Source of the DNA: Lingula anatina
Taxonomy: Eukaryota; Animalia; Brachiopoda
Direction of reading: 5' to 3'
DNA length: 64,000 nt
Assembly (NCBI GenBank): GCA_051362555.1
Contig: CM120647.1
Span: 8,184,001-8,248,000, forward strand
Below, one piece after another: positions 7,745 through 52,200 of the stretch (the first letter of the stretch is position 1; every line of letters starts with the position of its first letter). The translations under genes and the position numbers were made by a program. The notes beneath the pieces were generated by a model. That model saw only the letters and a program-made list of their open reading frames with translations. It did no database searches and was not told the origin of the DNA.

Positions 7745-8612
7745 TTCGATTTTTTTTTTCCTGTCCTTCTTCTGGTGTTTGATGATCTTTCAATGTATCT
7801 GGATCAAGTCTAAATTGAAAAAGTCTCTCACTGTCTGCTAACTATGGCTACCACAAAGAAACCAATCAAAATCTACTGGCTGCAATGTCAACGCCTTCTT
7901 TTTTAGATGAAATAGTTTTTCTAACTCCCCTTTAATATCACAGTTTGCTGTACGATAGTTATTTTATGAAATGAATGTATGACTTTTTTTCAGCTGATGA
8001 GGATAATTGTACGAATAAGACAGAAATTAATGTCAAGATTTTGTTTGTTCTTTTTTTTTTTCCTTGAACACTGGACAAGTTTCTACGATGAGCATGAAAT
8101 GTTCACTTGGCAATATGGAGGTTGAGCAATTGAGTTGTTGTTGGTTTTAATTGTGTGGACGACAATTCTGCTTTTTCCTTTTGGAAACAGCTTCTCTTGT
8201 TGAATTTGTGTTTCACTCCAACTGATCTTGCTTGGATATTCAGATTTCTTTCTTCTTTCTCCTCTTAAAAACTCCTCTTTGAAAGCCTTCAAAATAAAAC
8301 GTAGCAGACGACAGGGATTGTTATGCAACGCAAAGCTGTCACCTAATATTCAATCACAAATGCAACAAGGGAAGAAAAAAGCCGCTGCGTCACAAAATGA
8401 TCCACACAAGTTTATCCACCGTTACCTAGTCCTTTCAGAAAGTATATACTTTTTCAGGTGGTGATTTTTTCTAGTCCTTTGAAAATTCGACATTGGGAAA
8501 TGGTGTTACTTGTTGAGAGCTGAGCTTTCAATCCAGCCAAAGTAGGAGGTCTCACAGGAAGAATAGCTGTGCTTTACGATTCGTCTCTCAGGAGGAGCAA
8601 AATTCCAAGTAC
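7745..8612 (-). other. Long 5' UTR part of the SLC20 first coding exon
   Basis: Pyrimidine-rich acceptor TTTCTAG|G at 8613-8614; only two upstream ATGs found in about 870 nt. Confidence 0.6.
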
Positions 8613-28025: not shown

Positions 28026-31000
28026 ATGCCGGTGGTACTAGCACGGGGGTTGAGGTTCCTCTCGCTAAAGGTGGTCTTCGTCTACGCATTACTCTCCTGC
28101 TCCTTGTTTTATTACTGGCTGGAAACGGGACGTAAGCAAACAGATTGATTTGTGTCCATGACTTTTGTTTCTTTGCATCTTATGCTCTCTCTCTCTCTCT
28201 CTTCGTCTGCGCGCGCGCGCGTGTGCGTGCGTGTGTGTGTACAAGGCCTCGGTGTTGCAGTTTGTTCTTTTTTTCTTTATTATTGATGTTAATAAACATT
28301 TTTTTGGGGGGGAGGGGTAATTAATTAACATTCTTAATGGCTGACAGGCAACATCCCTTCCTACTCTTACCTATCAAAGGCCCCTATGTGTAACCATCTT
28401 TTCTCAAACAATCTATACTACATGTAATTTGGTTTAAGCAATCGTATCGTTATATTTCTAAACATTTCAACAGCTACACTTTCGTTTTAACGAAAAAACA
28501 GTCATGTGTTTTCCAATGACCCTTTGTTTTCCAAACGCGTACTGGTTTTCTTCAAATTAACTATTTACAAAAACCTGACATAAAAAACTTTTTTCAATAC
28601 TTCCAGTGGTTACAAACGACCCTCAAAAAGTGGAGCGACTCTTCGCCCCCCTAGTGGGCATCGGAGAGGAACTAAGCGCACGACAGGTTATAATTCTGAC
28701 CTATCAGAGGAGCGGGAGTTCTTTCACCGGAGAGCTCTTCAACAAAAACGACCATGCTTTTTACCTGTTTGAGCCAATTTGGGGATTCTACAAATCTATG
28801 GAGAAATATGGTTCCCTTACGTATCCGAACGGCACAACAAAGTAAGTGGGTGTTTTCGTCACTTTTTTCTGTCAGAAGTATTTAAACATATATTATGCTA
28901 CTTTAATTTGTGAAATATAAAGTATTTGAACATTAATATGTTAATTCAAATAAAAATTGATATTAGTTGGTTTGCATGACTTTTTTATTTTCATCACTGA
29001 AATTAAGTTATTACTACAAGTATTTTGTCATTATTCCTGTTTTTTTTTTTTTAATAATTTACCAATCAACTAATTTACCTACTTTACCTCATAAATCGGA
29101 TGGAAAACTGAAGTCGATTTCAGATCCTCAGTCGTAGGTGAAATTTCCACAGACAATAAATTTACCAAAGCAGAAATATTTTAAACGTTGCTAAGCAAAT
29201 CATAACTGACAATTACATGGTTGAGGTTACACAAAATACAGTACTTTCAAGAACATATCACAGATAAAAATCTTCGTTTTCAGACCGGCTCCAAAGCATG
29301 GTATCGAGTTTGACGAGACCACCCAGATCGTGGATGACCTCCTGAACTGCCGCATGTTTAATATTCCATTAGATGTGACCGCGCCATACGATATCGTCTT
29401 CCAGTGAGTGTCCAGTCACATTTACTTCTGTCGTTATCTTTCAATAATTATTACGTCACTTGGCTAAATGACGTTGTCTTTCAGCAATTATTACGTCATT
29501 TGGCTACATGACGCTATCTTTCAGTGATTATCACGTCATATGCGTCACGACGTTATCTTTTTATAGTCATGTCGTCGCACGGCCTTATGACGTTATCTTT
29601 CGGTAATTATTACGTCATCCTGTCTTATGACATCAACTGACCGTAATGGTTAGTCACAATGCCTTATCTTCATTAATAATTACGCCATAATGGCTTGTGA
29701 CGCTATCTTTCAGAGCCTCTTTTAAGATAAATAGGTTTTTCACAAAAAAAAAAAAAAAGAAAACGTTTTTCTTTTTCTTTTTTTTTTTTTTTTAATTTTT
29801 AGTCAGTTTTTGGGCGAAAAAACTATTCCAAAAGCTTAGAAACTGAGCCTATTACTATACAGGTTAAAGCTACTAAAGGTCACTGAAAAGACTGAATGAA
29901 AAGAAATTCTACAAAAAATTCCGAAAGTGCATACTTTCACAATGTTTTACGGTAAACTTATCATATGTTTGCGATATTTTGAAAAGCCTATTTAGAAACT
30001 TTATTTTACACCACCAAAGCTGTTTGGAAATTTCAACCTCAAATGACGCATGATGGCGTTTCAAGTCACGACGAATTTTTTACGTTACATCGATATCGAA
30101 ATTAAGTATAGAAATAAAAAATTTAGAAAAGGTAGAAAACTGTCACAATAAACCGAACCCAACTGCCACCAGTTTTACAAAAAATATTCGTATCACTTAG
30201 ACGCGTACTCGTACAATCACTGTCATATGACAAAGCCTGATTAAGAATGATCTAAAAACGTCTTTCTTTTTTGTACTGCAGGATATTCAGAACAGATAAA
30301 GGTAAAGAAATCGTAGTACCCAAGGACAACCACGACTTCCAAGCTGGTCTTGGCAGACACCAGAGACTCAATGACTTCAAGTATTTCGACTGTCTTAAAT
30401 CAAAACGGGGACTGGGAAAGGCGTCATGTTTACCGTTGATGCAGGAAGCGTGCAGAACAGCATCACTAAAGACGCTGAAACTGTTGCGAATCCGTATGAA
30501 CCAAGTGGAGACGCTGATGCAAAAGAATCCACGATTGAAAGTCATTCATTTAGTGCGAGATCCACGGGCTGCTTTAATCTCCCGCCGCAAGGTGGGCGAG
30601 ATGATAGGGAATCTCGAGATGGAGGCCAATATGAGATGTATGGAGATTTTGCGAGATTACAGTACGCGCCAACGTCTAGAGCACGTGTTTCCCAACCGCA
30701 TCATGCAGGTCCGTTACGAAGACCTGGCCGAGTTTCCTACAGAAACGGCTACTGCTATATATGAGTTTTTAGGCTTACCGTTTCCTAAGTCAGTAGAAAA
30801 GTGGCTGTTTAACGCCACTCAGAGTGCGGGCAATGTAACAAAGGGTATCGGAGACTATGGCACCGTGCGCAAAAACTCTACTGCTACTGCACATGCGTGG
30901 ATTCAAAAGATTTCCCCAGCGGATGCATTTCAGATTGACCAAGTATGCTCTGTGATATATCCTCTCCTTGGCTACCGACCATATAAAGAACTGCAGCCAT

Positions 31001-31359
31001 TACGTAACTTGACGGGAGAGTCTTTAAGCAATAACGTGCGGGGCTCGTATGGCTTTTTATACAAACGGCCCAAACCACCGGTCAATATAGACTGGTTTCG
31101 TGAAAACCCGTACCAAAAGCAAGTCCAAAATCAACCGTTCAATCCTCGACCGCCACCCCCGGGTATGGGGTTTTGGCCTCCACCGCCTGGCCCGCCCCAG
31201 GGAGCGCCAGTCCCGCGTGGCGACCCTCGTGCGGCGATGGAGATGTTTCAGCGTCAGAAACAGTGGAAAGCTTTGGCTGATTTTCAGGCAAAATATAGAA
31301 ACGCTCCGCGGAACAATAAACCGCAGATTAATTTTATGAAACATAAATTGAAAGGTTGA
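28026..31359 (+). CDS. Golgi carbohydrate sulfotransferase, CHST1/3/5-like (Gal/GlcNAc-6-O-ST family), about 512 aa (exons 28026-28131, 28607-28841, 29284-29403, 30282-31359)
   Basis: Type II signal anchor MPVVLARGLRFLSLKVVFVYALLSCSLFYYW; 5'-PSB TYQRSGSSFTGE, FYLFEP, 3'-PB HLVRDPRAALISR, VRYEDL; junction phases 1/2/2 consistent. Confidence 0.92.
29430..29715. repeat. Degenerate approximately 40-bp minisatellite in a sulfotransferase intron
   Basis: TGACGTTATCTTTCAGTAATTATTACGTCA-like unit repeated about 7 times. Confidence 0.7.
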
Positions 31360-32375: not shown

Positions 32376-35300
32376 CTACGTTATTTTATCAGGAACGTCA
32401 ACTGGAGCCCAAGCACCATTGTGGAACTTAGAATACAGGGCTGGGTCCGGTGGTGGAAACATTGTAGATGGTGCCATCTGGCGGATTGCTTCAAGTCTGT
32501 CCAATAGGTGGCGCACTACGCCTGGGTTCTTGTCTGCTACGTCATTGACTTCATACGGATCTTTAGTAATGTTGTAGAGCCATACGTTTTTATTCAAAGA
32601 AACGTTTTGAATGTTGGGGTCCACACCTATAATATCCAATCCAACAGGTTCGCCATCCTCGGTATAGGCCAAGAGAAAAGCTGCAATAACATATTTTGGT
32701 GTAGAGGTTACAATAAAGTAAAAGAAAACAAACGCCGAACATATAATTTTTTTCTAGAAAAACAACTGTGAATAGATAAAATCCACTTTAAATGACAACC
32801 TAACTAACCGAACAATTTAATTGCTACAGAAATGCTATACAGTGATCACTTCTCTTTAAAGATAATGATTCTAAAAAGATTTTATTTGGTGAAATAAAAA
32901 GATTTTAGAAACAATTTAGGGTGAAAGGATATTCGGAAAACAAAGACAAACTCACACGGCAATTTTTGATAAAAGTAAGATAATTTTCATTTGGAAATCA
33001 AACTGACGAGGCGATTTGGACTTAAATGTACAATTAAACAATATAACTTTTTTTAAATTCACATTTTTAAGCACAATTGATGCACTGAATACCAAGAAGT
33101 ATATCAAAGATGGAACAAAAACGAACTCTGTGGCAGGTTGGCATGGTTACCTGGAGTTCCAGTGATGATTTTCCAATCTCCCTGCCGTAAAGAGGCTCTC
33201 AATGATGTGTCAAAGGTGTCGTTGTACAGTCCCTTGCCACGTCTTGGAATAAATGATGGTGGGGACACTAATTCATGGATAATTTCCACTCTCGTTCCGC
33301 GGTGGTCTTTGCTGGAAGGATTTAAGGCTTCGTTCACATGCAATGTCTATTTTCTAAAAATCTATTTTCTATTCGCGATATCTTATGATCACGGTCTGTG
33401 CACTGAATATCCCGCCGCGTAATTACTGGCAGCGCGAGCCAGTTACTTATAGTAACTTTTAGTAACTGGCTCGCGCTGCCAGTAATTACGCCGCGGGATA
33501 TTCAGTGCACAGACCGTGATCATAAGACATACCGAAAATAGAAAATAGAAAATAGACATTGCATGTGAACGAAGCCTAAGTTCAATCAATACCTGTACGT
33601 TGATTTCGCATTTGTATAATACAGAGATTTTGAAAAACAAAAGTATGGGAGATACTTTTTTAATTGAAATGCTGTTCATCAAAGCTTTTTTTCCTTTACT
33701 TTTCCTTCAGTCAGCAAAAACATTTGTGCATAGGTGGTACAAATAACCCGATACCATGTAACACCTAGGACTTCAAAAGCTGCTCCAAACATTTCCCTCA
33801 GCCGACTGCTTAATTTAGGCCTGTATATGTGTAGCATGCTACCCTATCTGTAGATATTGGGGAATTATTTTATTGGTGCTTTTAGGACCAGGATGTAACA
33901 TGTATCACTCGCTGTAGGCAAATTGTAGGCAAATTTTAAGCCAACCAGTATTGCAAGTAACGATATGAATGGTTTTTAGAACAGGAGTTTACGTGTAGGC
34001 CAAGTTGCACGAAAGTCCTGCCATTGCAAATGAAACAGAAATATGGAGCATTCACAACCAGTTGATCCGTTGACTAACTAGATCAACTTGAAAGCAAGCC
34101 ACATAAACGTCTTACAATAACATGATAGAAACCCTTCTAGCAAGGGCAGCTACAGCAATTTTAATTTAAAAATTAAAAAATTTCGGCACATGCTTTCAAG
34201 TACGCGCCATATTTAATCCGCGGACTAGTTAATCCGAGGATCAACTGTGTGTGAATGTCCCATTGTAGTACCTCACCACGTCCCATACATCGAATCCGTC
34301 CATCGCTTCAACCCCTTCCACCTGGACTCCCGCTAAACCGAGCAATGTCGGACACCAGTCTGTGATGGTAATGAGGTCACGAGCGGTTCTTCCCGGTTTC
34401 TGTAGCAGTTTACTCCATACGAAGGCTGGCACTTTTATCCCACCTTCCCAGAGAGATCCCTTGATGCCCCTGTAAGGGCCGTTGTCAGCACCGACGTCTG
34501 GGGCACCGCCATTGTCTGTCAGAGAGAGCATTATTGACAAATAATAGGCAATATCATGGGCGTAACTAGGCATACGCACGGATGCACTGTGCGTACAATT
34601 TTTTGAGCCAATTATGATATTACTCTCTTTAAATTTAGTGTATTTTTCACGAAAAATAATCGAAAATCCTCTTCGATTGCAAGTTAGAGTCACCTGAATG
34701 TACAAATCTGTATGAATCTGTATGAAACGTATACGCACCATTGTTCTGACGCCCCCCGTCTCGTTTGCTTTCAAAGAACTGAGGTAAATAAACAATGCTA
34801 ACTACCTCCAGAAGTCCTATCTTAAAAGTCCATCTAGCTGGAACTTCCTTTACCTCTTAATCGGAGGTTTGAATGCCCTTCAACTCTCAGGTAGCCATTG
34901 TCTTAAGTGTGTCGAATGCACACTCGCTGGCGATATTTATCTCAGATAAAAATCTACCTGTGTTATTTTCAAAGAGCAGCTCCAGCAGACCTGGGGACAC
35001 TAGATAAAATCTGGACAACGGGCTTTATAAGGAGCCAGAGGAAAAAAAATTTCTGCGAAGCTCTAAAGAATTTTGACACGGACTTGACCCAGCTTAACCC
35101 TCTAAACCCTTAACAGGGTGATATGGGCAATTTCCACAAACAAACACAGCTTTATCCTGTAATATAATTGGTTGATTTTGGATGATACTATATATAAGTT
35201 CAATTTTTAGAAGATTCATCATTAAACTGACCATGGATATGACGAATAGGATAGCAAGATCAACTGTTCTTAAGATTATTTTCTGACAACTCGGGATAAC

Positions 35301-38300
35301 CGCAACAAACCACATCGAACAAAGGTGCCTCACCGTTATGTAGAATTTAGCTTAAAACAAGCGGGCATCATTTGCATATGTTCCGAAAGTTTGTGTCAGT
35401 AAGCCCCTAGTTCAATAAATATACCATTCTAAGGCTTTTCCCAGCGAGCCGTCCAGCTGCCAATTGGACGGCCGCTGTCATCACGGCCGTCTTACGATTA
35501 AAAAAGTCTTGACTTGTCGGGGCAGCTGTGGACGTCGTATGAAAATCCACTGCAATAATTTGACGTATGAATATTATATTACTTTGTAGTGCACGCTGTT
35601 TTTCAGTCACGACGTAACTACTACCTAAAGCTAACAAAACACAATAAAATGTTTCCACTAATTTTAAAATACAAAATTCAGAATTGACAAGAATGAACTA
35701 CATTCGGTACAAAACACGTGTAGGCCCTAAATGAAATATGACCTAACTTGCCGCCAAATTATGAAAGGGGACACCTTTCGGAACTTTATACGTATGGCAC
35801 CTGACAATGCTAATACATAAGAAAGGCAATTTTTATATCTTCGGCGAGAGATTGTTCGCAATCCGAAAGAGACGAGAAGGCAATTTTCATATTTGTTCAA
35901 GAGACTTCGTTAACCGAGGATCGGGAACAAGAGATAGTTACCGACCGCAGTTAGACGACAAGCCAATTTTCGTATCTTCAGCGAGAGATAGAGCGTGATC
36001 TGAGCGAAAAGAGAAAGCAATTTTCACATTCGTTCAATGGACTTCGTTCGCAGAAGATCGTCAGCCAGAGATCGTTCGCGATCCGAGCGAGACGAGAAGG
36101 CAATTTTTATATTCATACAAGGGCGTTCTTTCGTGGAAGAGCGTGACGGGAGATCGGTATCAATTATTTTCAACCCTCTTTCCCAATGAAATTTATTATT
36201 AAAAAAAATTCCATTAATTTTTACCCCACCCCCATCCCCGCGCACGGCTTTTGAGGCCCTGAAGTTTGAGGCCCTGAAATTTTGAAGTAAGATACAGATG
36301 GCAATTATGGATGGCCTGTACCCCAATCCCGGAAAAGGTGTTGGTTCTGGAAGAAATAATTTACTGGAACTTAATTATACTGTGGGAATATTTTAAACTT
36401 TAAGTAATGATTTTATAAACGGTGAAAACTAAGCTATTATATTTGGCACATATAATTTAAAGGGTTTGCTTCATGCCGTCAGAATGGCCTGAACGGAACA
36501 TATTCTTCAGAAAACATGCCCAGCTAACGATATCTTTATCCAAATACACAAATTAAAAGCTCATTTTGTAAATTTTTGGCTTTAAAAAACGTCCTATTTG
36601 CTCGGCCTGAGAGTTAATGAGCTACGTTGTCACGTGGTCTGATGACGACAATCGAGCCACTGGAGAATAGAGCGTGCTTAGCTGCTAAACTGAGCTGCAT
36701 TGTCTACCTGTAAGATTACTTCTCTGGCTTCTGATAAAAGTTTATACTCATTCAAATCTCTTACCCGAGGGGTCTAAATCCTCGTGAAGCTGTGTAAAAC
36801 CATTTCCCGTCTAGTCAATTCTTTAACAAGCATTTAATCATGGTTATCCCAAGTTGTATAAAACACTGCATTTGAATGAGTTAAGGGAAATGTTGATTAT
36901 TGCATATGAGGTCCATGTTATTTGTGAAATTCAATTTTATTAAACCGCTGACACTCCGTCTTGCATACTTTTATTAAACTGAGGTAAACAATGCCCGTTA
37001 CCTTTACAAGTCCTATCTTAATCATCCATCTAACTGGAACTTCCTTTACCTCTTAATTAGAGGGTTAAATGGCATTCAATTTTGTCTTGCTTGTATCGAA
37101 CGCACTCTCTATCTAAGCTTTACTCCAGTTATCTCAGGTAAAAATCTTCCTGTGCGTTAGTTACAAAGAGCAGCTCCCGTAGACCTGGGGGTACTAGATA
37201 AAATCTGAACACCAGGTTTATCGAGGAGCTAGAGAAAGAAAGGAAGAAATTTTCCTGCACAACTTCATAGGAATTTTATGTCTCCTTGATCTAAAGGTTC
37301 AATACGATGCCGAGAAAGGAGCAATAAAGTGACAAACACAAGTATGATGTTCGAAACTTGGCCGATGCCGGCCGCTTTTATTGTGAATCCTTATACTAAA
37401 ATGAATTAAATTTTGATGTTAAAATTAATTAATTGTGACAGTGCCAAAATACGTAATTTTTTACGCCTGAAAAGACTATTTTATATATAATTCCCAAAGA
37501 ACATAGTGCAGACGTTTTAATTTGTGGGGTTGCAAAGAGGCCGAAAAGAAGCCGATAGTGAAGCCCGAAACAAGTTGCTTTCTTAAATCAGAAGGATAAC
37601 CAGAAAGATATTTATTGAGTTTGTTGGGGTCTACTGGGGTTTTTAGGACCCTGGGGGGTAGATGGTGAGTTTCTGTTGGCCCGTGAGGGGTAGGAGGGGC
37701 GGGCAGCTGCTCTATTCTCCGATCTGGGACACTGGGACGCTGGATGGGTACCCCCTGAGCATCTGAAACATTTGTGGTCGTACGTGCAATCCCCCCTACA
37801 GTGGTTTCCGGAGTGAAATTTGTAGCAGACCCCTTGGGGAAATTTACGAAATGGCTGCCTAGATGTGAATGACCCCCTTGGGCGAAATTGCTGGACATTG
37901 TTATTTGGGCGAGAATTGAGAAGAGCCCTGTTCCAAAGATCCCAATTAGTATCCTCCCAAGGGTCACCAGACCTTTCTTTGTTAGCCCTGAAGTTGCGGT
38001 CATAAGCTAACCAGTCCCCCCTTAGCCCTGCTAAGACCCTGATGTCTTCAGCGTATTTAAGTAAATTGGGCGCCTCCTGGGGGTGTTTAAGGGTGTACAC
38101 TGACATGAAAGTATGAAAGGCCGTTGTCCATTGGGACATGGAGGTGATCTGAGGCCTTCTACCCTGGGAGACTACCAGTGTGATTTTACCGTGGTTGTTT
38201 TCCATGGCCAATGGGAGGGGGTCGCCGGGTTGGGGCAATTGCGCTGACTGGTCTTGGAGGAGTAGTGACATGTCGACAAACTCGTTCCCCCAAATTCGAT

Positions 38301-41300
38301 CTTTTAATTTGTCGTCGACTAGGGCGTGTAAGGGAATGGACTTAGTTGAATACCTATTAGTCTGGGGGGATACTATACCTGTGTCCGCTGAAGGAGGAGT
38401 AGGCGGAGGGTTTTCTGGCAGATTGCGCTGGCCCGACTGAGGTGCCACCGAGTTGGCTGCCAGTGTTGCCATGGCTTGTGACATCTCCTTCAGAATGTTG
38501 AAGATGGCCTGGTTGTCCACGGGCTGTGGGGTTGAATGTGAACTCCCAGAAGTTGAAGGTGAGGAAGTGTCCGCAGAGGAAGGTGCAGATTTACGAACAA
38601 GTTGCTTCCCCTTACTGACTCGCGGGCGTTTTTCCGATGCTGAAGAGGGGCCGGCGGAAGAAGTGCTCGCAGTAGAGGGAGTAGGGTGAGTTCTGCTTGC
38701 CCGGCGTTTGTTTGGAGTGCTCTCAGGAGCTGTTGAACTTCTTGATCTCTTGGGAGGCACTGAAAAGTGTAATGAAGAGAGCAGCAGACAGGTGAAATTA
38801 TTTGTAAGTTCCCATGTAGTTTTTTATAACTCGGAGGAGACGGGGAAGGTGGCGGGTATCAAAATCGTACTGAGGCGAATTGAGCAGTGATCCGTTGATT
38901 GTTCTCTTGCGACTGTCGTGCGTGAGAGCAAAGTGAGAAAGAATACTATCGTACATTTCGTTAAACGCGACGGCGCGTACCTTGTGGAACACACCTGACC
39001 TAGTTCAACCTGATTGGGCAAAAATTAGTAACGAACCAAATACTCTGATTGGATAAGAAAGATTGGCCAATCACAGCCCATTGCCGATGCAGCACTAAAT
39101 CCACGATTCTATGTGCAGCATTGAATCCGAGGCTCGTCAGTTCATGCAGCACTCAATCCGAGGTTTGTACAAGTATGGCAAAATTACAATGCGAATCCCG
39201 TCGGAACTAGGTTACAATCCGTCGCCATAAAACAACGTTTGACTCAGCCGCCAAACTTCCCTTTATGTCTCCTTGATCTAAAGGTTCAATACGATGCCGA
39301 GAAAGGAGCAATAAAGTGACAAACACAAGTATGATGTTCGAAACTTGGCCGATGCCGGCCGCTTTTATTGTGAATCCTTATACTAAAATGAATTAAATTT
39401 TGATGTTAAAATTAATTAATTGTGACAGTGCCAAAATACGTAATTTTTTACGCCTGAAAAGACTATTTTATATATAATTCCCAAAGAACATAGTGCAGAC
39501 GTTTTAATTTGTGGGGTTGCAAAGAGGCCATAACCTTGGGATCGCAGAGGCCAAGGAAAACCCCACAAAGGACAAAGGAGCCTGCTGATAAGGACAGAAA
39601 GTTTCCAGATGAGTAAGTAGTGCGTAATGAGTAGAGGTCGGAAATGTAAAGACACAAAACGTGCCGCTCACCTAGGCGAAGCTAGGCAGACGAAAATATG
39701 ACAAAAATAAGGCATGAAAAGTTATGCCACTCAACCTGAAAACCAGGTCGGAAAGATAAAGACACAAAACGTGCCACTCACTCTGACGAAGCAGAGCGGA
39801 ATATAAAGACACAAAACGTGCCACTCACCTAGGCGTAGCTAGGCGGACAAAAATATTGCAAAAATAAGGCATGAAAAATTATGCCACTCAACCTGGAAAC
39901 CAGGTCGGAAAAGTAAAGACACAAAACGTGCCACTCACTCTGACGAAGTAGAGCGGAATATAAAGACACAAAACGTGCCACTCACCTAGGCGTAGCTAGG
40001 CGGACAAAAATATTACAAAAATAAGGCATGAAAAAATACGCCACTCAACCTGAAAACCAGGTCGGAAAAGTAAAGACACAAAACGTGCCACTCACTCTGA
40101 CGAAGCAGAGCGGAATATAAAGACACAAAACGTGCCACTCACCTAGGCGTAGCTAGGCGGACAAAAATATTACAAAAATAAGGCATGAAAAAATATGCCA
40201 CTCAACCTGAAAACCAGGTCGGAAAGTAAAGACACAAAACGTGCCACTCACTCTGACGAAGCAGAGCGGAATATAAAGACACAAAACGTGCCACTCACCT
40301 AGGCGTAGCTAGGCGGACAAAAATATTACAAAAATAAGGCATGAAAAATTATGCCACGTCGTTGCCGACTGGAGTAGGATAGAGGATAAAAGGAAGGAAA
40401 ATTACCGGTGGTCCTGAAAAGGTCGGGACCTGACAAAAGGGGGAGATGCGCCTATGGGCCTGAAAAGGACATGTGATGAGGGTGACAATAGATATACAAC
40501 AAGAAATCTCAAGGAAGTGATGTAGATATGGACTAAGAGCTATGGATAAAGGAAATGCTATGGGCCTGAAAAGGACACGTGTTGAAGGACAATTTAGGAA
40601 AGCGAAACGCGAAGCCGGGAGGCCTTCCTAATGATGGCGCCCCGTAGACTACGATAAAGTTTATACTGGCCCACATCCGAGAGATGCACCCCGTCTGGCT
40701 TGATGTGGAGCCGGTTAACTCTCCGCAGACCTACGTTCTTCCAAAAGGAAATGAATGGATTTCTTAGGGGCAAGTCTGCTAGGAGAATATTGAGCTGATC
40801 TACTTGGTCATTAAACGAAGGGTGAGGGGGACGTAGCCTGTGGTGAACTTGGTTCACCACCACATGTGAAACACCAAATACGTCGTGAAACGACGGGCTA
40901 ACTCCTCAATATCCTTACAGAGGTTTGAGGGAGAAACGTTACGATCGGACAGGTCATTAGAACCAATGATAAGAACGACCAGGTCGGGCCGTACCCGGCG
41001 AAGGATCCCCAAATCGTACTTGACCAGTTTAGGGACCGTGCGGCCGCCTATCCCGTGCCAGTGCACAGAATTGGGGAAACCAAAATCTTTCGCCGCCCGT
41101 ACGTCCCGACCCTGGTCGAGAAATGAACGGAGTCTATGAACAAATGAATGACCAATAACTAGAACTGCCATGGTGATCGTAATTCTGTGAGTCAAAAACT
41201 AGCAAATTATATTGAAAAAGAGAAAAAACTTACTTGTTAGCTGATCAAAATCGTACTGAGGCGAATTGAGCAGTGATCCGTTGATTGTTCTCTTGCGACT

Positions 41301-44300
41301 GTCGTGCGTGAGAGCAAAGTGAGAAAGAATACTATCGTACATTTCGTTAAACGCGACGGCGCGTACCTTGTGGAACACACCTGACCTAGTTCAACCTGAT
41401 TGGGCAAAAATTAGTAACGAACCAAATACTCTGATTGGATAAGAAAGATTGGCCAATCACAGCCCATTGCCGATGCAGCACTAAATCCACGATTCTATGT
41501 GCAGCATTGAATCCGAGGCTCGTCAGTTCATGCAGCACTCAATCCGAGGTTTGTACAAGTATGGCAAAATTACAATGCGAATCCCGTCGGAACTAGGTTA
41601 CAATCCGTCGCCATAAAACAACGTTTGACTCAGCCGCCAAACTTCCCTTTAACAAGGACTTGATCCAGCTTAGACCTCCAAACTAACAGGGTGACATGGG
41701 CAATTTTCACACACAAATCATAAAACTATATTTCAGTTAACCGCCTTTGAAATAAATATACCGTTCTGGGTAAATTAGAATAGTTATTAAATCGCGAGAA
41801 TATTTTTGACTTAAATGATGATTTTATTATTAATGGGAATTAAGCTACTATATGAGGTACATTTGCTTTGATTACGCTGTCCTTCATGTTTTGCGTAAGT
41901 CTACATTTTGCTTTATGTGCTTGTAATTTTTTAAAATATGTGCGTACAATTTTTGCAGGTCTAGTTACCCCCTGTTATGTGATGAGAGTATAAATTTGGC
42001 AATTAGTTCCTTAGCTTATTTGAATAGAATTGCATTGTAAAATGTTCAACAAGATGTTGGCGAAATAGCCCATTACTCTTTGTAGGTATTTCCTCCTTCA
42101 AAGTTTGTCTAAAATTATCTTTCAATCTTTACTCTTTCAAAGACAGTATAAAGTAACCTGACATATTTTCGTGTAAACTTAATGACAAGCCAAGTGTCTC
42201 CAGTTCATTCCGTACTCAATTTTACCCAAGCAAATTTTTTTCTTGAGTAGATCTTTATAGCACGGTGTTATAAGCTTACAAATTTGAAAAAAAAAAATTG
42301 CGTACTGACGCAGAATTTGCGTTTCAAGTTATAAAATGATCAATCTTTTAAATTATTTAATATTTCAGATGAAACAATCTTCAGAAACAAATCCTCAATG
42401 CATAAACGAATTAGGATAACGAACCGTTTTATTACAGCAGTTCCCATTTTTTCTTTAATATAACGCTCTTTTTCCTGTTTTTCCTCAACACGTTTTCTTC
42501 CACGGAAGCTTCAAGATACCCTGAGAGCAATTTCTTTTATTAATGTTCGCGACCGTGTTAGAACTTAATTGTTTAATTCAAATTCTTGTTTTTCTTTTTA
42601 TCAAGAGCTTGTAAAATATGTGGGTATTACCTCAATATTGCTCTTGATAAAAAAGAAAAACAAGAATTTGAATTTATACATACAGAGCTAATGAAACTGT
42701 TCTCTCTTAATTGTTTAAGTATTGATATTTAACGTCATTTACAAATACCAATAAAATAACCCCATGAAATAAATGAGATATATTGAAAAATATGAAAGCC
42801 CACCAAGACGAGTTTCATACCTGTTATTACCTGGCTTGGGAATTGCAGCGGTGCATAATTAACAGGTTTTATTGATAACGAGCTCTTGGTCAACTACAAT
42901 GAATTTAAAAATGCATCAGCAATTAGTAAGCTTGCCAACTGATGACAGTATCTAAAAGACTATCAGCTTTTGATATGATCTAAAACACCTGAGGTGACCG
43001 AGATCACGAGGATCGCAACTATTGTCACCAAAGTTAGCAAGTTAGTCACGGAAGACCGTCACAGATAAAGAAAGATAGTCAAGGAGTGCTGTAATTTTGG
43101 TGAATCCCACGGCAACACACTGAGGCATAAAGAAAATTGCTCAACTCCGTTCAACACAACTTTCCAAAATCATTCTGTCTGTTTGCACCATGCAGCTCAG
43201 TTGAGTCTCATAGACCTTTATCGTGATTGTCGTCACAGTACCACGTGACCCAGATCTGTTGCTTCATTTATGCATATTGAGGTGAGGTTTACTAAAACGC
43301 TTTTTTACTATTAATAGATTGTTTTTATAATTTTTAAATGGCGGGGATCGATTAAAACATACCTCTAGTGTATAGATTGAGTGCTGAATCTTCAAAATTC
43401 GAGAAATGGATTTTTACGTGAACATTGTCCTTTAAACTGCCCTTCATCTTTTGCGTAAGTCGATGTACATTTAGCTATACCTGGAAATTTTGAAATTCTG
43501 TGCGTACAATTTTAAAAGGTCTGGTTACGCCCCTGAATATTGAGATGTGTGTTACAATCGAGACTGATCCTGATTTAAAGGAAATACTACTGCAAATAAG
43601 AAATTTGTCGCACCCATTTTCACTTTAAAAAATGCTTTGTGTGTTGGCTTGGTAAGTTGGAGAAATTTACAACTTACTCCAGGAAAATCTTGTTGGTTTT
43701 ATGTTCTAATGAATAAAATAGAAAGACACCGACCGATTTTTAAAATTGAAATTCCTTGGTGCTTTATTTCAACATGAAAGTGACTCAACGGGGAAAAATC
43801 GGTCTCGAACTGATTAAAGTGACAGTTGAAAGAGAACGCCACCTACCGGATGAAAATACGATCACAGTGTTGTCAAGCATTCCTCTCTGTGCCAACGAGC
43901 CCATCACCTCGGACACTGCGTCGTCTAACGCAGATACCATTCCTACAAGTAAATAAAAACAACAGGAAATGTTAAAATAATTTGTCCTGTGATCTAGCTG
44001 CACCTGGCATCAGGCACTAGGATGTGTAAGGGCGCGTTCCCAGTGAAACGTAGTCATTCTACGTAGATCGATTCAACTCCGTGAGAACGAGATTTTCATT
44101 GCTAACGCACCCTTAAATGAGACCGGTGCTATGTCCAAAAGAGTTCCTTCCCTTGCGAAAAATTTCTTTTAGGTTCCTATGGGAAAATTTCCCCAAAACC
44201 CTCTACGCACGTGACGTCCGATAGAACTCCGGATCCTGTAGAGTCCTGTAGGATTCCTTTACAGACCAAGAAAAGTCCCACACAGCCCTATAGGATGTAC

Positions 44301-45430: not shown

Positions 45431-46606
45431 TTTCATTTAGAAAGCAAAATAAAGTGACTACTTACGTATAATTTGTATATTCAACTATTCACTCCGAGAG
45501 CGCGACCTCCGCCAAGGCAGCAATTTTTGATTGTTATTGATTATTGATTGATTATTGATCCAGATCACCACCAAAAACGAATCACTTCAAAGTTAACCCA
45601 TTTCTGACCTACCCTGAAAATTCCATCGAAATTCATCCATAACTTTTTGAGTCATGTTGATGACAAACAGACAAACAAACAAACAGGGGTGAAAACATAA
45701 CCTCCTTGGCGGAGGTAATAAGACAGTTATAAAGTGAAATAAAATTTAAATAGCACGCAAAGACATACTACAAATAAATCAAATGCAGTGGAATTGCATA
45801 TGCTTTACGTGCATTTATGTGCTTCCTGTGGTTGAAACAGCTCGATCTGACCGTGCTGATGCTACACACTTTCTTGGCACAGCTATCAGAATGGCGATGT
45901 ACGAATCAAAATTGTCCTGGCAGAAAGTGAGCAGAAATCCGTGCTTCGTGATTAGCCATGCATGTTTTTGCCTTTGTTTGTCAGATTCAATGTGACGTCC
46001 CGGTATGGACGAAATTATTGGTGATTTCGGATTGAAAAAGCAAACTCAAATTACGTCAATGCGTTGTTTTACATTCTAGGAAAATCAATACTAGTATAGG
46101 AGTATATAGGCAGATATTAAATAATGGAAAATCAACACAAAAATATAGACTCACCTTATCAGTACCGTGTTTATTAATGATGTCCTTGGCCACGTCGGTG
46201 TAGATATACGTGGCAAAAGTCCTGTTTTTGGTCCAATCCGGCCTGCTCCCGTTCCAAAGGTCAAGACCACACTGACCAAACATGGACAAGCAGTCCGTGT
46301 GAGTAAAGTAGTCATTCGCGGCGCCGAAAATACCTTATGAACGAGAAGATAAGGGTTTTTTATACCAAAGTGTCGAAACCATAAAAAAATCTCGCTCTCT
46401 TATATGTCTAACTGAACTACATACATATAAAGATAAATTTGTCAGTAAATCATTTTCTCTGCAATTATAGCCCCAGCTATAAAACGCATATTCCGGGAGA
46501 TAAATAAACTATTAAATGATTAAATAAACTGAATAATTTACGAAAATGTCATCCTGACTCATCAGTATAGCAACTTTAGTTTTCAAAAGCACGAAATCGG
46601 CTTCAG

Positions 46607-46640
<34 letters not shown>

Positions 46641-47878
46641 GGGGGGGGAGGAGAATATATCTAGAGGAATCTTACCATAGAAACTATCAAATCCCCTGTA
46701 AAGAGGAGTGTTCTTCCAAGTGTAGTGACCAATGTGCCACTTGCCGACCATGTGGGTTCGGTAACCTCTCTCCTTGAGCCGCTGTGGAAGTAAAGTCTCG
46801 TTCAGCGGCAGTGCCATAGGCATTCCTTGCATGTATGGCAAAGAGAGGCCTGTCCAAGCCTGAAAATATAAATTACTGGTAATTTGATGTTAAAGGTACA
46901 CTTCATGGGTCTGAAAATCCTCCAAATGTTTATTTTTGCCATCCACATGCACTTATACTACTTTACATACGCCTTAAAAACGATTTAACTCCTTAAAGAA
47001 TTTATTGCGGAGCGTGCTATATGTTGATACTTCCATCGGAGCTTAGGAAGATGGTCCCTGGTAGGCCTAATAATGACTGGCCTTTTTAAAATACGTCAAC
47101 CTTTATAAATTCACTTAAAGGTCGAATTCAAGTAGAGAAAGGGATAGATTAGTGGTTTGTGAGTGCTAGAAAATGGCTAATTTCCCCGGAAAAATCCATT
47201 TTGGTGGGTAAATCCCATCAATTGCCATTTAATGGATAAAGAAACTCCAAATTAGCTTTGCCTAGACCATATGCAAGGCTTGAATTAACGATAAGGCCTG
47301 AGATGGGCTCTATAACAATAGCGAATTCGTATGCTGTGTAGAGGACTGTAATTTAACTATATAAACATATCTAGTGATTTAACTATGCAATTTTTACAAA
47401 CATCTAATGCAATCTCGTAAGCTCTCGTAGTAAAAGCGAAATATATACAGTGTAGAGTGAAATAAAGGAAAGAAATAAAGAGATAGCAGGACAGAAAGAA
47501 ATGATTTGAGAGTAAAGGGATGAATAAGCGGAAAGTGGCCAGAATGACACACACACATACAGAGAGAGAGAGAGAGAGAGAGGATGGAAATTAACAGTGA
47601 GAGATAAAGAAAGAGCTCACCGCATTCCGACCTGTTAACAGTTCTCCTCTGCTTGGAGTACACACGGACTTGGCGTAATAATTCTCCAGTTTCACTCCCT
47701 CCCTGGCCAGGCGATCCAGGGTTGGTGATTTCACCTGGTTGTTATGGTAACCTACGTCGTTCCAACCCATGTCGTCTGCTAGGAACACGACGATGTGTGG
47801 AGGTCTCTTCCCAGCCCCTCTCACACTATCTCCAAGCAAACACAACATAATAATCAACACAGAAATAATAAGCTCCAT
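32376..47878 (-). CDS. Arylsulfatase B/I/J-like sulfatase, copy 1, about 513 aa (exons 47878-47621, 46859-46676, 46333-46155, 45341-45227, 43942-43847, 34515-34272, 33311-33151, 32680-32376)
   Basis: Signal peptide, [15 protein letters not shown], FGly motif [46 protein letters not shown]; every junction GT-AG and in phase. Confidence 0.93.
33326..33576. mobile_element. Fold-back MITE (Tourist/PIF-Harbinger-like)
   Basis: GGCTTCGTTCACATGCAATGTC...GACATTGCATGTGAACGAAGCC, almost entirely palindromic, TAA TSD on both sides. Confidence 0.85.
37543..37680 (-). pseudogene. Truncated N-terminus of the overlapping RT (pol) ORF; RT/RNaseH/YR deleted
   Basis: [32 protein letters not shown] resembles the TPV...L...GF..GF lead-in of DIRS/Ngaro RT ORFs, overlaps the gag end in another frame and is cut abruptly at repeat B2. 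Confidence 0.75.
37612..38759 (-). CDS. Gag-like ORF1 of the YR retrotransposon
   Basis: Basic/Ser-rich N-terminus, [46 protein letters not shown]-terminal Cys/His finger [33 protein letters not shown] typical of DIRS/Ngaro ORF1. Confidence 0.85.
39647..40357 (-). repeat. Higher-order tandem array inside the retroelement: 157-bp period, three hairpin-bearing monomer types, 13 complete monomers
   Basis: TAAAGACACAAAACGTGCC(A/G)CTCA recurs at 39647, 39757, 39804, 39914, 39961, 40071, 40118, 40227, 40274. Confidence 0.95.
40594..41171 (-). pseudogene. SGNH/GDSL hydrolase ORF of the retroelement with one frameshift near 40890
   Basis: Blocks VLVIGHSF (I), HGIGGRT (II), IIGSNDL (III) in the 40854-41195 ORF and DGVHL (V) in the 40594-40863 ORF. 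Confidence 0.85.
45490..45720. mobile_element. Helentron-associated (HINE/DINE-like) short element
   Basis: Subterminal IRs ACCTCCGCCAAGG (45505) and CCTTGGCGGAGGT, terminal hairpin ACCTCC-TTGGC-GGAGGT, internal microsatellites. Confidence 0.55.
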
Positions 47879-48640: not shown

Positions 48641-49218
48641 GTGCACGTGCATTGGGTTTTTAAACATGCTCCGTAATATGATAGAAGAAAAAACAGTCAA
48701 GCATAAACGCAAATCACACTATGTACACTGATATATATATAGGCCTGCACAGGGGCTCTAATAAGCCATCTATACTCAACATTTGGAATTCTTCCACGAA
48801 TTTATATTTAACATCCGTAAGTTGTTGTTTTTTTTTTTTTTAATTGCCTTAACTTTGCCATATCAACGAAACAGAAGCACTTTTTTCCAGATACAGTCAC
48901 TGTATACACGTGCACAGACAAAACAAACCTGAATAAGTTAAGAAGAAAACCAACCATTTTCTAGATTTGATGTTAAGCAGAGACACGTATGCCAACCCCA
49001 GAAATGCGAAAGAGAATAGTATTTGTTTATTCTTTAAAACAAGCTGTAAAAACGCAGATTTAAGTGGCGCCCCTCAGTTTTGTTAACACGGTGTTTTTTG
49101 AAGCCACCAAGGGCAATGTACCAAATACAATTACCAAATTTAGAATAACATTCTTAGTTAGAAATACGAGAACTAATATAGCAGTGTCTTTCTAGACTTA
49201 GAGAAGTAAGCGATTTCC

Positions 49219-52200
49219 ATGATGAGGTGGACTCCTGTCATTCCATTAGTTCTTGCTTGGGTTTTGCTGCATCGGATTTGTTCGGCTGTTTCCACCACAC
49301 CGCCGCACATTGTCTTGTTCCTGGCAGACGACATGGGATGGAATGACATAGGTTACCATAACAACCAGGTGAAATCGCCAACCCTGGATAGACTGGCTAG
49401 TGAGGGAGTCAAACTGGAGAATTATTACGCGAAGTCCGTGTGTACTCCAAGCAGAGGAGAACTTTTAACAGGTCGGGATGCGGTGAGTGGTTTGAATTTC
49501 CACCCCATTTTCGCGTTCCCTATCAACATGTACCACCCAAGCTATCACTTCAGTTCCTCTGCATCAGATCCCACTCTCTCATATGCATCTCCAACACCAT
49601 CTCTCTTTCTTTGTCTCTCTCACTGATCATTTCCATCCTCTCTCTCTCTCTCTCTCTCTCTCTGTTCATTTTTTCTCTATCTTTCCCTTTCTCTCTGTTC
49701 ATTTCTCTTTCTCTGTTAATTTCTCTCTTTCACCCTCTTTCTCTCTCTCTCTTTGGTCTTTCCCGTTTTTCAAGAGTAACCTCAATCACCCATGTGTATT
49801 TTAATTCATACACTTCAATAACTGATGTACCCGTCTCTTAGCATATCTTTTCTTCCTTATCCATTTATTTACAATTAGTTTTTTTATCTGTTCATTTAGT
49901 CATTTAGTTGGTCAGTCAGCCAATTAGTTAGTTAGTTAGTTAGTTAGTTTGAAAGTCAGTCAGTTAGTTAATTAGTCAGTTAGTTATCAAACTAATAATT
50001 GTATATACATGTATAACTTTAGTAATGTCAACGATTTCTAGGTAACCACCGGTCTGTCGGTTGCCTACATGCATGGCTATCCCGTGGGCATGCCTTTGAC
50101 GGAGAAACTACTCCCCCAGAGGCTAAAAGAGAGGGGATACGCCACCCACATGGTCGGGAAGTGGCATCTAGGGCACTACACGTACAAACATACCCCAACG
50201 TATAGAGGCTTTGACAGCTTCTACGGTAAGTTACAACAGAGATCTCTTCCAGCAAGACCTTAATTCAGTGTAGAGTTATTTCTACTTCAGTGTAAGAAGT
50301 CTTCTTCAGTGTATGATACTGGTACAATATCGTTATAGCCTCTATATACACTGTATGTATACCATTACAAACCATTACTTTTCACCGTCGAATTGAGACT
50401 AATATTGAAGTTCTAGGTACTAAAGGCGCATTCAGAACAAGACGATCCGCGGACTAACAAATCCGTGGATCAAATATGGCATACCCACTTGAAAGCTTGC
50501 CGCATAATCCTTATATAGACACTGAATAGATTCTCTGTGGGGGTAGCGCAACAAGCATTCAAGTAGGACGGCCATATTTGATCCGCGGACTACTTAGTCG
50601 GCTGTTGTGAATACGGCCTTAGATTTTACGATTTTTTTCCTATTTAGGGATATACGGCGGAGGCACAGACTTCTATTCCCACAAAAATTGTCTCTCTGCA
50701 TTTCCTGGTGTCTGCGGCCTTGACCTTTGGAACGGGACGGTGCCAGATCGGTCCAAATACGGCGTGTTCGCAACAGAGATATACTCTCGCGTGGCAACAG
50801 ATATCATACGCCAGCACAATACCAATCAGGTAAGTACAGGGGATCGCTACAGTGAAGAGTCGTCTTTTCATATCATACATAATAAAGTTTAGTTTTCAAA
50901 TTTAATGTTATTTTTAATGTTATTTTACCAACGTTTTGTTGTGCCATGAAAGGTATTTCATCCACTTTTGCAGCCTTTGTTTTTGTACATGCCATTCCAA
51001 CTCGTTCACGAACCGGTTCAAGTCCCGCAGAGATTCGAAAGCCTATACGATGGGTTAGTTCCGAATGGCTTGAGGAAAACGTATTTAGGTACGTTCATTG
51101 TCTATCCTGAAAGGAAGCGGATCTGCGTATTTTCAAGAGATTATCTTTCGTTTATATTCGCAGGTTCTAGCACATGTAATCTCACCACTGTAGTTGCCTG
51201 TGATCATTGTGTGATCATTATTTTTCTTTCCTTGTCAGTCTCATCTTACGTGGTTTTTGTAACCCTCTACTATATTGTAGCATCCTGGTCAAACTGTCTG
51301 TAATGTTTTATTTTCTTTTTTTTTTTTTTTCTAGGTATGGTGTCCGCTTTGGACAAGGCAGTATCCGATATTGTGGAGAGTTTGATACAGCGGGATATGC
51401 TTGAGAACTCCTTGATTGTATTTTCATCCGGTAGGTGGCGTTTGTTGCTGCTGTAACAGATAGTATTTTAACGCGCTGGAGATGAAATAGACTAAGACTG
51501 CATTCCCACAGATTTTAGATCGATCTTTCCCCGTGGGGAGTCTCACTAAGTTACTTTCAGCTTAGCCGGCTAAAACTTTTCTGTTTACAATACAACTGAA
51601 AGATTAAGTCTAACCAACAACTCACCACTGTTGTCGTAGATGTTTTGCGATATTTTTCAGACAATGGCGGTGCTCCAAAACAGGGCGCTGACAACGGTCC
51701 CTACAGGGGCATCAAGGGGTCTCTCTGGGAAGGTGGGATAAAAGTGCCAGCTTTTGTATGGAGTAAACTGCTACAGAAACCGGGAAGAACCGTTCGTGAC
51801 CTCATTACCATCACAGATTGGTGTCCAACATTGCTCGGATTAGCGGGAGTAGATGTTGAAAATCTTGGATTAGATGGATTTGATGTTTGGAATACTTTAA
51901 GGTGGGTGACACTTTTCCTAGGTGATAATTGAAAATTTGTGGTCATCACTTCCATCTGCTTGCGTGGGTGATTTCGACTTAAGTTTTTTGCTTTTTTATA
52001 GCATGCATCACAAATCTTTGCTTTTATTAATGAAAGTTTATCTAGCACATTTGATTGTTTAAGAGCTTACGTATATATTTTTCCATCATCCAACCAGAAT
52101 CCAGGATATCTCTGCGCGAATTACTTTGGATATATATTTCTTTGGTCTCAAAAATACAACCGTTTAGTCTTTAACTCGACCGCCACTTTCAGTTCCGGAA

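Follow-up and report, generated by a model that had tools for sequence, protein, structure and literature searches.

A tandem array of predicted RNA hairpins between the SGNH hydrolase and gag-like genes of a Ngaro-like retrotransposon in Lingula anatina

Introduction

The algal tyrosine-recombinase (YR) elements TOC1 and kangaroo-1 carry internal tandem repeats, for which, to our knowledge, no fold has been described. In Ngaro elements, the split direct repeats have been described as following the order A1-ORFs-B1-A2-B2 (PMC7192593), which two further papers expand to A1-gag-RT/RH-YR-(SGNH)-B1-A2-B2, thus placing SGNH after YR (PMC9210276; PMC8547959), with the SGNH hydrolase being said in one of these papers to have "no proven function" (PMC9210276).

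Examination of a 64,000-nucleotide stretch of Lingula anatina DNA (the window) revealed an element that shares split direct repeats and a B-A junction with Ngaro elements (Xenopus DIRS-53_XT; Cafeteria Ngaro), with gag, RT, YR and SGNH being found in its relatives. By contrast, SGNH is here the first ORF, gag needs splicing and a hairpin array lies between the two, while in the Lingula copy the array is separated from gag by B1-A2. An element that starts with SGNH, splices its gag and has B1-A2 in a permuted position extends the described Ngaro anatomy, and the array bears on the choice of RNA for reverse transcription in DIRS-order elements and on the role of SGNH. The array is a real cis-acting RNA array, apparently without earlier description: literature searches on arrays, packaging signals, splicing and structure in DIRS and Ngaro elements, and on Lingula elements, returned nothing relevant, with the founding Ngaro papers, the 2015 review, Repbase and supplements, any of which may note the SGNH-first order or the repeats, lying outside the scope of these searches.

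Results

The array is found within a 4.4-kb insertion on the minus strand (41648-37275), the order of which, read along that strand, is A1, SGNH gene, array, B1, A2, gag-like ORF, pol stub and B2. A1 (41244..41651, with the left end of the element near 41648) and A2 (38858..39265, directly after B1) are 100% identical, as are B1 (39262..39529, containing AATAAA) and B2 (37275..37542, the right end of the element), such that the Ngaro features of A1 equal to A2, B1 equal to B2 and an internal B-A junction are all present. The internal B1-A2 junction is the circle-junction template. A TAAA core is common to both element ends and to the B1-A2 junction, no target duplication beyond this shared 4-base core is seen and empty-site joints (37274-41648) were found in all four sequencing runs. 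Given the shared core and the empty-site joints, the element has inserted recently into a host repeat of high copy number and is still polymorphic, in keeping with integration by a recombinase. The element sits between minus strand arylsulfatase-like exons.

All coding regions of the element likewise lie on the minus strand. The SGNH/GDSL hydrolase gene (40594..41171; Pfam PF13472, E 9e-7; relatives 40-54% identical) bears a frameshift near 40887 in the window copy that is missing from 24 of 25 RNA reads. The gag-like ORF (37612..38759; 382 aa) is homologous to ORFs found between SGNH and RT in relatives, is 100% identical over residues 150-340 to L. anatina LOC106156593, an identity that assigns the window to this brachiopod, and, upon motif inspection, ends at its C-terminus in CCCH-like and CCHC-like zinc-finger motifs, for which Pfam offered no support and a PDB sequence search with the finger region returned no meaningful match. 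The pol stub (37551..37700) shares 41% identity over 32 aa with the start of the RT ORF in one relative (L030; E 6e-4). The window copy has lost RT/RNase H and the tyrosine recombinase to a deletion, with RNA reads of other copies departing from the window sequence at 37550. Judged from these sequence features, the element represents a Ngaro-like tyrosine-recombinase retrotransposon of L. anatina that is non-autonomous.

The described order A1-[all ORFs]-B1-A2-B2 is not that of the window (A1-SGNH-array-B1-A2-gag-B2), nor does SGNH follow YR in the window, where it is first and 5' of gag. The described order is, however, found in a relative, L058 (A1, 1789-2010; B1, 7827-8052; A2, 8056-8277; B2, 8341-8566), and the Lingula copy is therefore a permuted version of this canonical arrangement. 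Since contigs spanning the A-gag and A-SGNH junctions were of like depth (175 vs. 159; DNA run X3) and no array-to-acceptor joint appeared among the joints listed in the runs examined, the permuted position of B1-A2 seems to be common to several Lingula copies.

The original prediction had placed the array inside an intron, and RNA reads bear this out. A GT-AG intron of 2474 nt (38760..41233, minus strand), supported by the junction sequence, is spliced in 17 reads with 13 different starts in RNA run X11, of which about 6% was read; no spliced reads were listed for X14, X17 or X3, the depth of X14 and X17 over the array being too low to bear on splicing. Removal of the intron joins A|TG, creating the gag start codon (MPPKRSR...); unspliced reads also span the A2-gag junction. 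Reads over SGNH, the array and gag are almost all in the minus strand orientation in X11, and also in X12. In X11, SGNH is covered in the sense orientation at a depth of 10-33 and the array at 2-20; immediately past the array the depth is 11, in B1 it is 1, and the B1/A2 junction, like the 5' part of A, shows 0-0.1. Coverage then rises again at the 3' end of A2, and gag is covered at 28-61. A1 holds CCAAT-like boxes and may act as promoter: its 5' part has almost no RNA coverage, which increases toward the 3' end, and transcription likely starts near 41390. Host pre-mRNA was rejected as the source of these reads, because coverage is almost absent from the 5' part of A and the reads differ from the window copy.

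The collapse of depth in B1 indicates that most of the array-bearing RNA seen is SGNH mRNA ending in B1, which is likely the 3' end of this mRNA, with a poly(A) site inferred there. The array thus doubles as the 3'UTR of the SGNH mRNA, beginning about 220-280 nt past the SGNH stop codon, and full-length element RNA is rare in the X11 sample. As such, the earlier proposal that the array is present only on genomic RNA does not hold, since it is also carried by SGNH RNA whose coverage stops in B1. Among the properties expected of a packaging signal, confinement to unspliced RNA is observed and confinement to genome-length RNA is not.

The array is one tandem repeat (39643-40357; period 157, 4.6 copies, 96% matches, as determined by TRF). 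Monomer splitting and folding resolved it on the minus strand into 13 two-hairpin monomers (40317-39647) and one partial unit upstream of the full monomers (40373-40334), for a total span of 39643..40373. The monomers follow the order ABC ABC ABC ABC A, with A being 47 nt, B 47-48 nt and C 62 nt, so that the predicted cycling of 13 monomers as a 157-bp trimer was confirmed. Only three independent monomer types are present in the window. The consensus put forward for the monomer, with UCCG and UGAGU, is seen in 12 of the 13, the exception being monomer 13, which reads UCUG and UGAGC. Uridine accounts for 305 of the 715 nt of the array.

On the minus strand, types A, B and C each fold as hairpin-AGU-hairpin, with minimum free energy (MFE) and centroid structures in agreement. 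Hairpin 1 comprises 7 bp and hairpin 2 comprises 5 bp. Stem 1 had been proposed to be of 5 bp, in the versions CUCUG/CAGAG, CCUAG/CUAGG and ACCUG/CAGGU; the compensation among types stands, while the length does not. Likewise, UCCG and UGAGU, previously read as linkers, are partly paired, with CG and UG closing stem 1 through a G.U pair seen in all 8 distinct rows, leaving AGU as the true linker. The loops of the array fall into two classes, N-UNCG-Y hexaloops and GUUUU pentaloops. MFE values for A, B and C were -14.8, -14.5 and -15.6 kcal/mol on the minus strand, as compared to -9.2, -8.2 and -13.1 kcal/mol on the plus strand, and the folding z-score of one trimer was -4.5 on the minus strand and -2.4 on the plus strand. 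Type C by z-score prefers the plus strand (-4.3 vs. -3.4), although energy prefers the minus strand for all three types. G.U pairs that never vary indicate that the RNA strand is the one concerned, and the suggestion of a structured RNA on the sense strand of the element is supported.

When types A, B and C were compared, 5 of the 12 pairs had changed at both positions and a sixth at a single position, with none being broken. Stem 2, originally read as occurring in two versions, accounts for a single double change (C-G to U-A) together with a wobble change. The full pairing claimed for the stems thus holds among the types but fails in monomer 8, where the loop-closing pair is broken (A.C), this being the sole unpaired cell among 88 when all 13 monomers are considered. 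Overall, 98.9% of cells are paired, as compared to 87.7 ± 2.2% in 500 shuffles, none of which reached either the observed paired fraction or the covariation score; the number of doubly changed pairs was not significant relative to these shuffles (55 of 500 reached that observed). Slid registers pair only 16-53% of cells. When equal numbers of substitutions were randomly placed on the 24 stem letters, all pairs were kept in 1138 (A-B), 152 (A-C) and 560 (B-C) of 400000 trials, i.e., 0.04-0.3%, for comparisons that are not independent of one another. Since these very sequences had served to define the structure, both the shuffle and the placement controls lean toward structure.

A search with Rfam covariance models, as had been called for, matched no family: the region 39000-41000 of the window gave one match (E 1.5), outside the array, and none at the gathering threshold, while eight relatives gave only tRNA and the histone stem-loop, both in the flanks.

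Variants in other Lingula copies were read from two RNA and two DNA runs aligned to one trimer, with some rows coming from the window's other monomers. Of 35 variant rows, 11 fall in stems and 9 of these preserve pairing. Two further compensatory changes were so detected, extending the covariation to other copies. One, A-U to C-G (40154/40145), was seen in 6 and 6 reads in X12 and at equal contig depths in X2 and X9, while the other, U-A to C-G (40107/40098), was seen in 7 and 8 reads in X12 and in one X9 contig. Both (four rows in total) are absent from the window's own monomers, and the equal read counts suggest that the paired changes are linked. Five stem rows keep pairing as single changes, and two break a terminal pair, in X17 only (5 and 3 reads). 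Stems showed no significant depletion of variants (11 of 30 places; p 0.20).

Related elements were sought in metagenome contigs using an SGNH alignment, with the best 80 of 207 relatives, falling into 24 clusters, being kept. The query alignment includes a protein carrying the label Paramuricea clavata. The relatives nearest in SGNH (P0001 and P0002) are known as proteins without DNA placement. In every relative locus where tblastn found gag, it lay downstream of SGNH and was followed by RT and YR ORFs (RVT_1, E 7e-11 and 9e-10; Phage_integrase, E 5e-4 in one of two YR ORFs). An AG acceptor after a pyrimidine run was noted by eye just 5' of gag in about half of 17 representatives.

The spacer that follows the SGNH stop codon carries family-specific hairpin arrays in several clusters, such arrays recurring at the same SGNH-gag position. 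A G-[N-UNCG-Y]-C hairpin with three more pairs gave 106 matches in 47.3 kb of sense spacer (the first 700 nt after the SGNH stop) and none in the antisense orientation, as compared to one match in 324 kb of sense sequence outside spacers and nine on the antisense strand of that sequence, seven of which are one site in one cluster. This hairpin was detected in 21 of the 80 loci and in 4 of the 24 clusters; the pattern was built on window monomers A and B only, yet was written after viewing the relatives and so is not fully blind. Among 37 distinct loop-anchored sites in relatives, G.U pairs outnumber A.C pairs, 15 to 5. A covariance model of the complete two-hairpin module recovered only the window's own monomers, with nothing convincing in the 80 loci (best match, E 0.013, inside an ORF), such that the relatives examined have in common with the window the single hexaloop hairpin and not the two-hairpin fold.

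An unsupervised search for the most-repeated loop was conducted on the 17 representatives, with hand-set gag starts and 100 shuffles. Five representatives (L058, L040, L027, L030 and L080) gave a repeated loop for which no shuffle of the 100 was as high, namely, UUUCGC ten times in L058, CCUUGUU seven times in L040, CUACGUU four times in L080 and AUUYGU five times in L027 and nine times in L030, each of the latter two on five different stems. Any tandem unit will outscore shuffled sequence as a matter of course, and the informative representatives are therefore L027 and L030. AUUCGU is also among the loops that differ between families. Three representatives were borderline (3-7 of 100 shuffles), and in nine of the 17 no repeated loop was found relative to shuffles. 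Folding z-scores of the spacers did not favor the sense strand, with antisense being lower in 9 of the 17 representatives, including all four hexaloop clusters.

In the SGNH tree, the hexaloop needs four changes and the window is not grouped with the hexaloop families; in the gag tree, three changes are needed and the window lies on a long branch in a starred set with five non-hexaloop rows. Since the trees do not join the window to the hexaloop clusters, the shared hexaloop may reflect convergence on the stable UNCG fold, and, based on this phylogeny, it was probably either convergent or repeatedly lost. In five loci, a second multi-copy hairpin follows the YR stop codon, such that the placement of arrays follows stop codons no less than it does the intron. 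The array is retained in each of the deletion derivatives (L060, L028 and the window copy), an observation that is biased because loci were found via the adjacent SGNH gene. In viral contigs, the pattern scan gave 22 single dispersed matches, taken as chance, and no array, while the SGNH profile found no relative.

Discussion

The array is very probably a structured RNA under selection, and a multivalent protein-binding platform is the likely prediction as to what it does. Who binds there is a matter of more tentative choice. We lean, at somewhat under even confidence, toward the array being a putative multi-copy docking signal for the element's own Gag, acting in packaging or RNP formation. 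The element would make a spliced (or A2-started) gag-pol RNA lacking the array, together with an intron-retaining RNA that contains it; the latter would serve as SGNH mRNA and, upon read-through to B2, as the template for reverse transcription. Short stable stems with U-rich linkers would display one loop many times, allowing for avid, family-specific binding, and the zinc fingers of Gag would dock on the array, such that intron-retaining RNA would be selected for particle assembly. Tandem amplification of a partner-recognized hairpin could then give each family its own loop and copy number.

Gag is favored as partner because the loops are family-specific, because the array is absent from gag-pol mRNA and because signals in single-stranded RNA viruses are similar. 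Different loops in different families (UUUCGC, AUUCGU, CUACGUU and CCUUGUU) fit a partner that the element itself encodes. Retroviral Psi is likewise kept out of spliced mRNA. The main objection to packaging by Gag comes from the SGNH mRNA that ends in B1 and from the second array after the YR stop, since genomic RNA would face competition from a sub-genomic SGNH mRNA bearing the same packaging signal. Also counting against this reading are the restriction of the hexaloop hairpin to 4 of 24 clusters and of a clearly repeated loop to 5 of 17 representatives, the failure of the two-hairpin model and of the trees to link the window to the hexaloop families, the spacer z-scores and the lack of a significant depletion of variants in stems. 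The SGNH mRNA and the second array fit a host-bound 3'UTR element almost as well. Such an element, in which hairpins and U-rich linkers recruit host export, stability (anti-NMD) or localization proteins, is the main rival, a possible if somewhat doubtful explanation. It would account for a U-rich array (305 of 715 nt) that begins 220-280 nt past the stop codon of the first ORF, in the 3'UTR of an expressed SGNH RNA, for the second array after the YR stop and for the recurrence of the hexaloop in unrelated branches, as a host partner would impose; moreover, the unspliced RNA of canonical relatives has about 5 kb past the SGNH stop. The RSV RNA stability element and PTBP1 offer a stability analogue, but PTBP1 protection is described for sites within 200 nt of the stop codon (PMC4764554), whereas the array is further out and mostly paired. 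Export and packaging are, in addition, both served by the CTE and RSV DR hairpins (PMC9143442). Against a host partner are also the differences in loops between families and the 9 of 17 representatives without a repeated loop.

Readings in which no such partner is involved fare less well. It is improbable that the GUGAGU linkers are U1 decoys, i.e., unused donor sites that would adjust how the intron is spliced or how often the B1 poly(A) signal is read through. Although a 9-mer in agreement with MAG|GURAGU at 7-8 of 9 positions is present in 9 of the 13 monomers (the true donor matches at 8), no array site is among the used donors listed in RNA reads and full-length RNA requires B1 read-through, the GU and preceding bases are paired in stem 1, type C keeps the fold without the GU register, the hexaloop arrays of relatives lack GUGAGU by eye, and stem 2 and the loops are left unexplained. 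The RSV negative regulator of splicing reportedly holds a decoy 5' site (PMC3082916). Somewhat more improbable still is a neutral repeat, in which slippage of chance inverted repeats and template-switch correction of quasi-palindromes mimic compensation. This would suit a recently amplified trimer (96% identical) with only three independent types, stems that are not depleted of variants and the many relatives without an array. Palindrome correction would, however, erase G.U pairs, yet one is invariant and G.U exceeds A.C by 15 to 5 among 37 sites; arrays that are not tandem present the same loop on five distinct stems, and the position and strand of the hairpins are strict. Least probable is that the structure acts as single-stranded DNA (cDNA) or as a self-cleaving or nuclease-blocking RNA. 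Folding with DNA parameters gives z-scores of -4.2 on the minus strand and -2.5 on the plus strand, and the plus strand of monomers A holds GCGNAGC, which we take to be a very stable DNA mini-hairpin. DIRS-1 cDNA is single-stranded (PMC7192593), but first-strand cDNA would here be the plus strand of the window, where G.U becomes A.C, and closure of the GNA triloop is not kept in relatives. As for ribozymes and xrRNAs, no Rfam match was obtained and no pseudoknot or hammerhead core was seen by eye.

Of known systems, TOC1 and kangaroo-1 share with this element tandem repeats within an element with split direct repeats. Psi, CTE/RSV DR, the RSV stability element and the RSV negative regulator of splicing are structured elements confined to intron-retaining RNA, as is the array, and decide packaging, export, decay or splicing; they are single or duplicated and without sequence or Rfam likeness to the array, whereas here a module of 47-62 nt is repeated 13-fold. 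An RSV-type stability element would be expected to have pyrimidine-rich sites near the stop codon that act against UPF1; the array is U-rich but begins 220-280 nt from the SGNH stop. Returning to docking by Gag, repeated short hairpins are presented in one report as a common form of packaging signal in single-stranded RNA viruses, including the UUYCGU hexaloops of coronaviruses (PMC8206606), while the function of the coronavirus SL5 UUYYGU hexaloop is called unknown in another (PMC10705266). The array and SL5 (UUYCGU/UUYYGU) have in common several short hairpins, a near-identical hexaloop (N-U-U/A-C-G-Y here) and a proposed packaging role. They differ in that SL5 arranges its two or three loops around a four-way junction within a 5'UTR, while here 8-13 loops form a linear, U-spaced array in a 3'UTR and intron. 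This is an analogy, not homology.

As a short and well-delimited RNA present in many copies, with compensatory variants that arose in nature and loops that differ by family, the array lends itself to telling recognition by Gag from that by a host protein through family swaps. The most far-reaching interpretation, which we consider rather unlikely, is that of an undescribed, widespread animal YR clade in which SGNH comes first, gag is spliced and an expandable, family-specific hairpin barcode is read by Gag, with a hexaloop convergent with that of SL5. Were this so, DIRS-order elements would gain their first packaging signal, and the engineered MS2/PP7 arrays a counterpart that evolves in nature.

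Layout and Insertion Site of the Element

Examination of the Ngaro-like element (window 41651-37275) revealed the order of its split direct repeats to be permuted, with B1-A2, the internal junction, placed between the unit comprising the SGNH hydrolase gene and the hairpin array, and gag. As such, the element comprises two putative promoter-to-terminator units. This layout appears, from DNA run X3, to be common to several copies. The intron splits the gag start codon as A|TG (window 41234/38759); the public protein model of the matching Lingula anatina gene, LOC106156593, differs in that reading continues through A2 into gag.

The element is inserted between exons of a - strand gene predicted, upon inspection of the sequence, to be arylsulfatase-like. 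Inspection of the same kind pointed to another arylsulfatase-like start nearby, as well as to an exon of sulfotransferase-like character, with these arylsulfatase- and sulfotransferase-like features lying at window 32376-34801 and 46512-46889 (-), 49210-49626 (+) and 30256-31359 (+). The host repeat hit by the element (36956-37241 and 41684-41717) has a second, uninterrupted copy in the window (34756-35144), the pieces being 80-91% identical, and presents very high depth in X3.

Additional Motifs in Related Loci and Near the Array

Among the best 80 of 207 relatives, the stop codon of the tyrosine recombinase (YR) is followed in five loci (L029, 5613; L030, 5504-5813; L058, 7238-7704; L059, 4943-5400; L060, 1133-1822) by a second multi-copy hairpin, built of a stem, a small internal loop, a GC stem and an AAGG-type loop. 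Across the 80 loci, 17 matches were sense and none antisense; the same search found no match in the window. At the post-YR position, L069 carries another repeated motif, unlike the AAGG-type hairpin.

In three clusters lacking the window-type hexaloop (L069, L076 and L092), the SGNH-gag spacer contains a conserved block, GAGUGUACAA...UGCACUC (L069, 2450-2520), and a candidate GC-type donor, CAG|GCAAGU, lies 5' of SGNH. A longer irregular hairpin with the core GUCGAC-loop-GUC..GAC is present in at least one copy beside the arrays in the L027, L030, L058, L052 and L080 spacers.

Several short hairpin-like or acceptor-like motifs containing UUUUCAGG were also seen on the - strand of the window, between the SGNH stop codon and the array and in B (40579-40410 and 39465-39450). 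A search of window 39000-41000 against Rfam returned no match to these motifs, which resemble the histone stem-loop.
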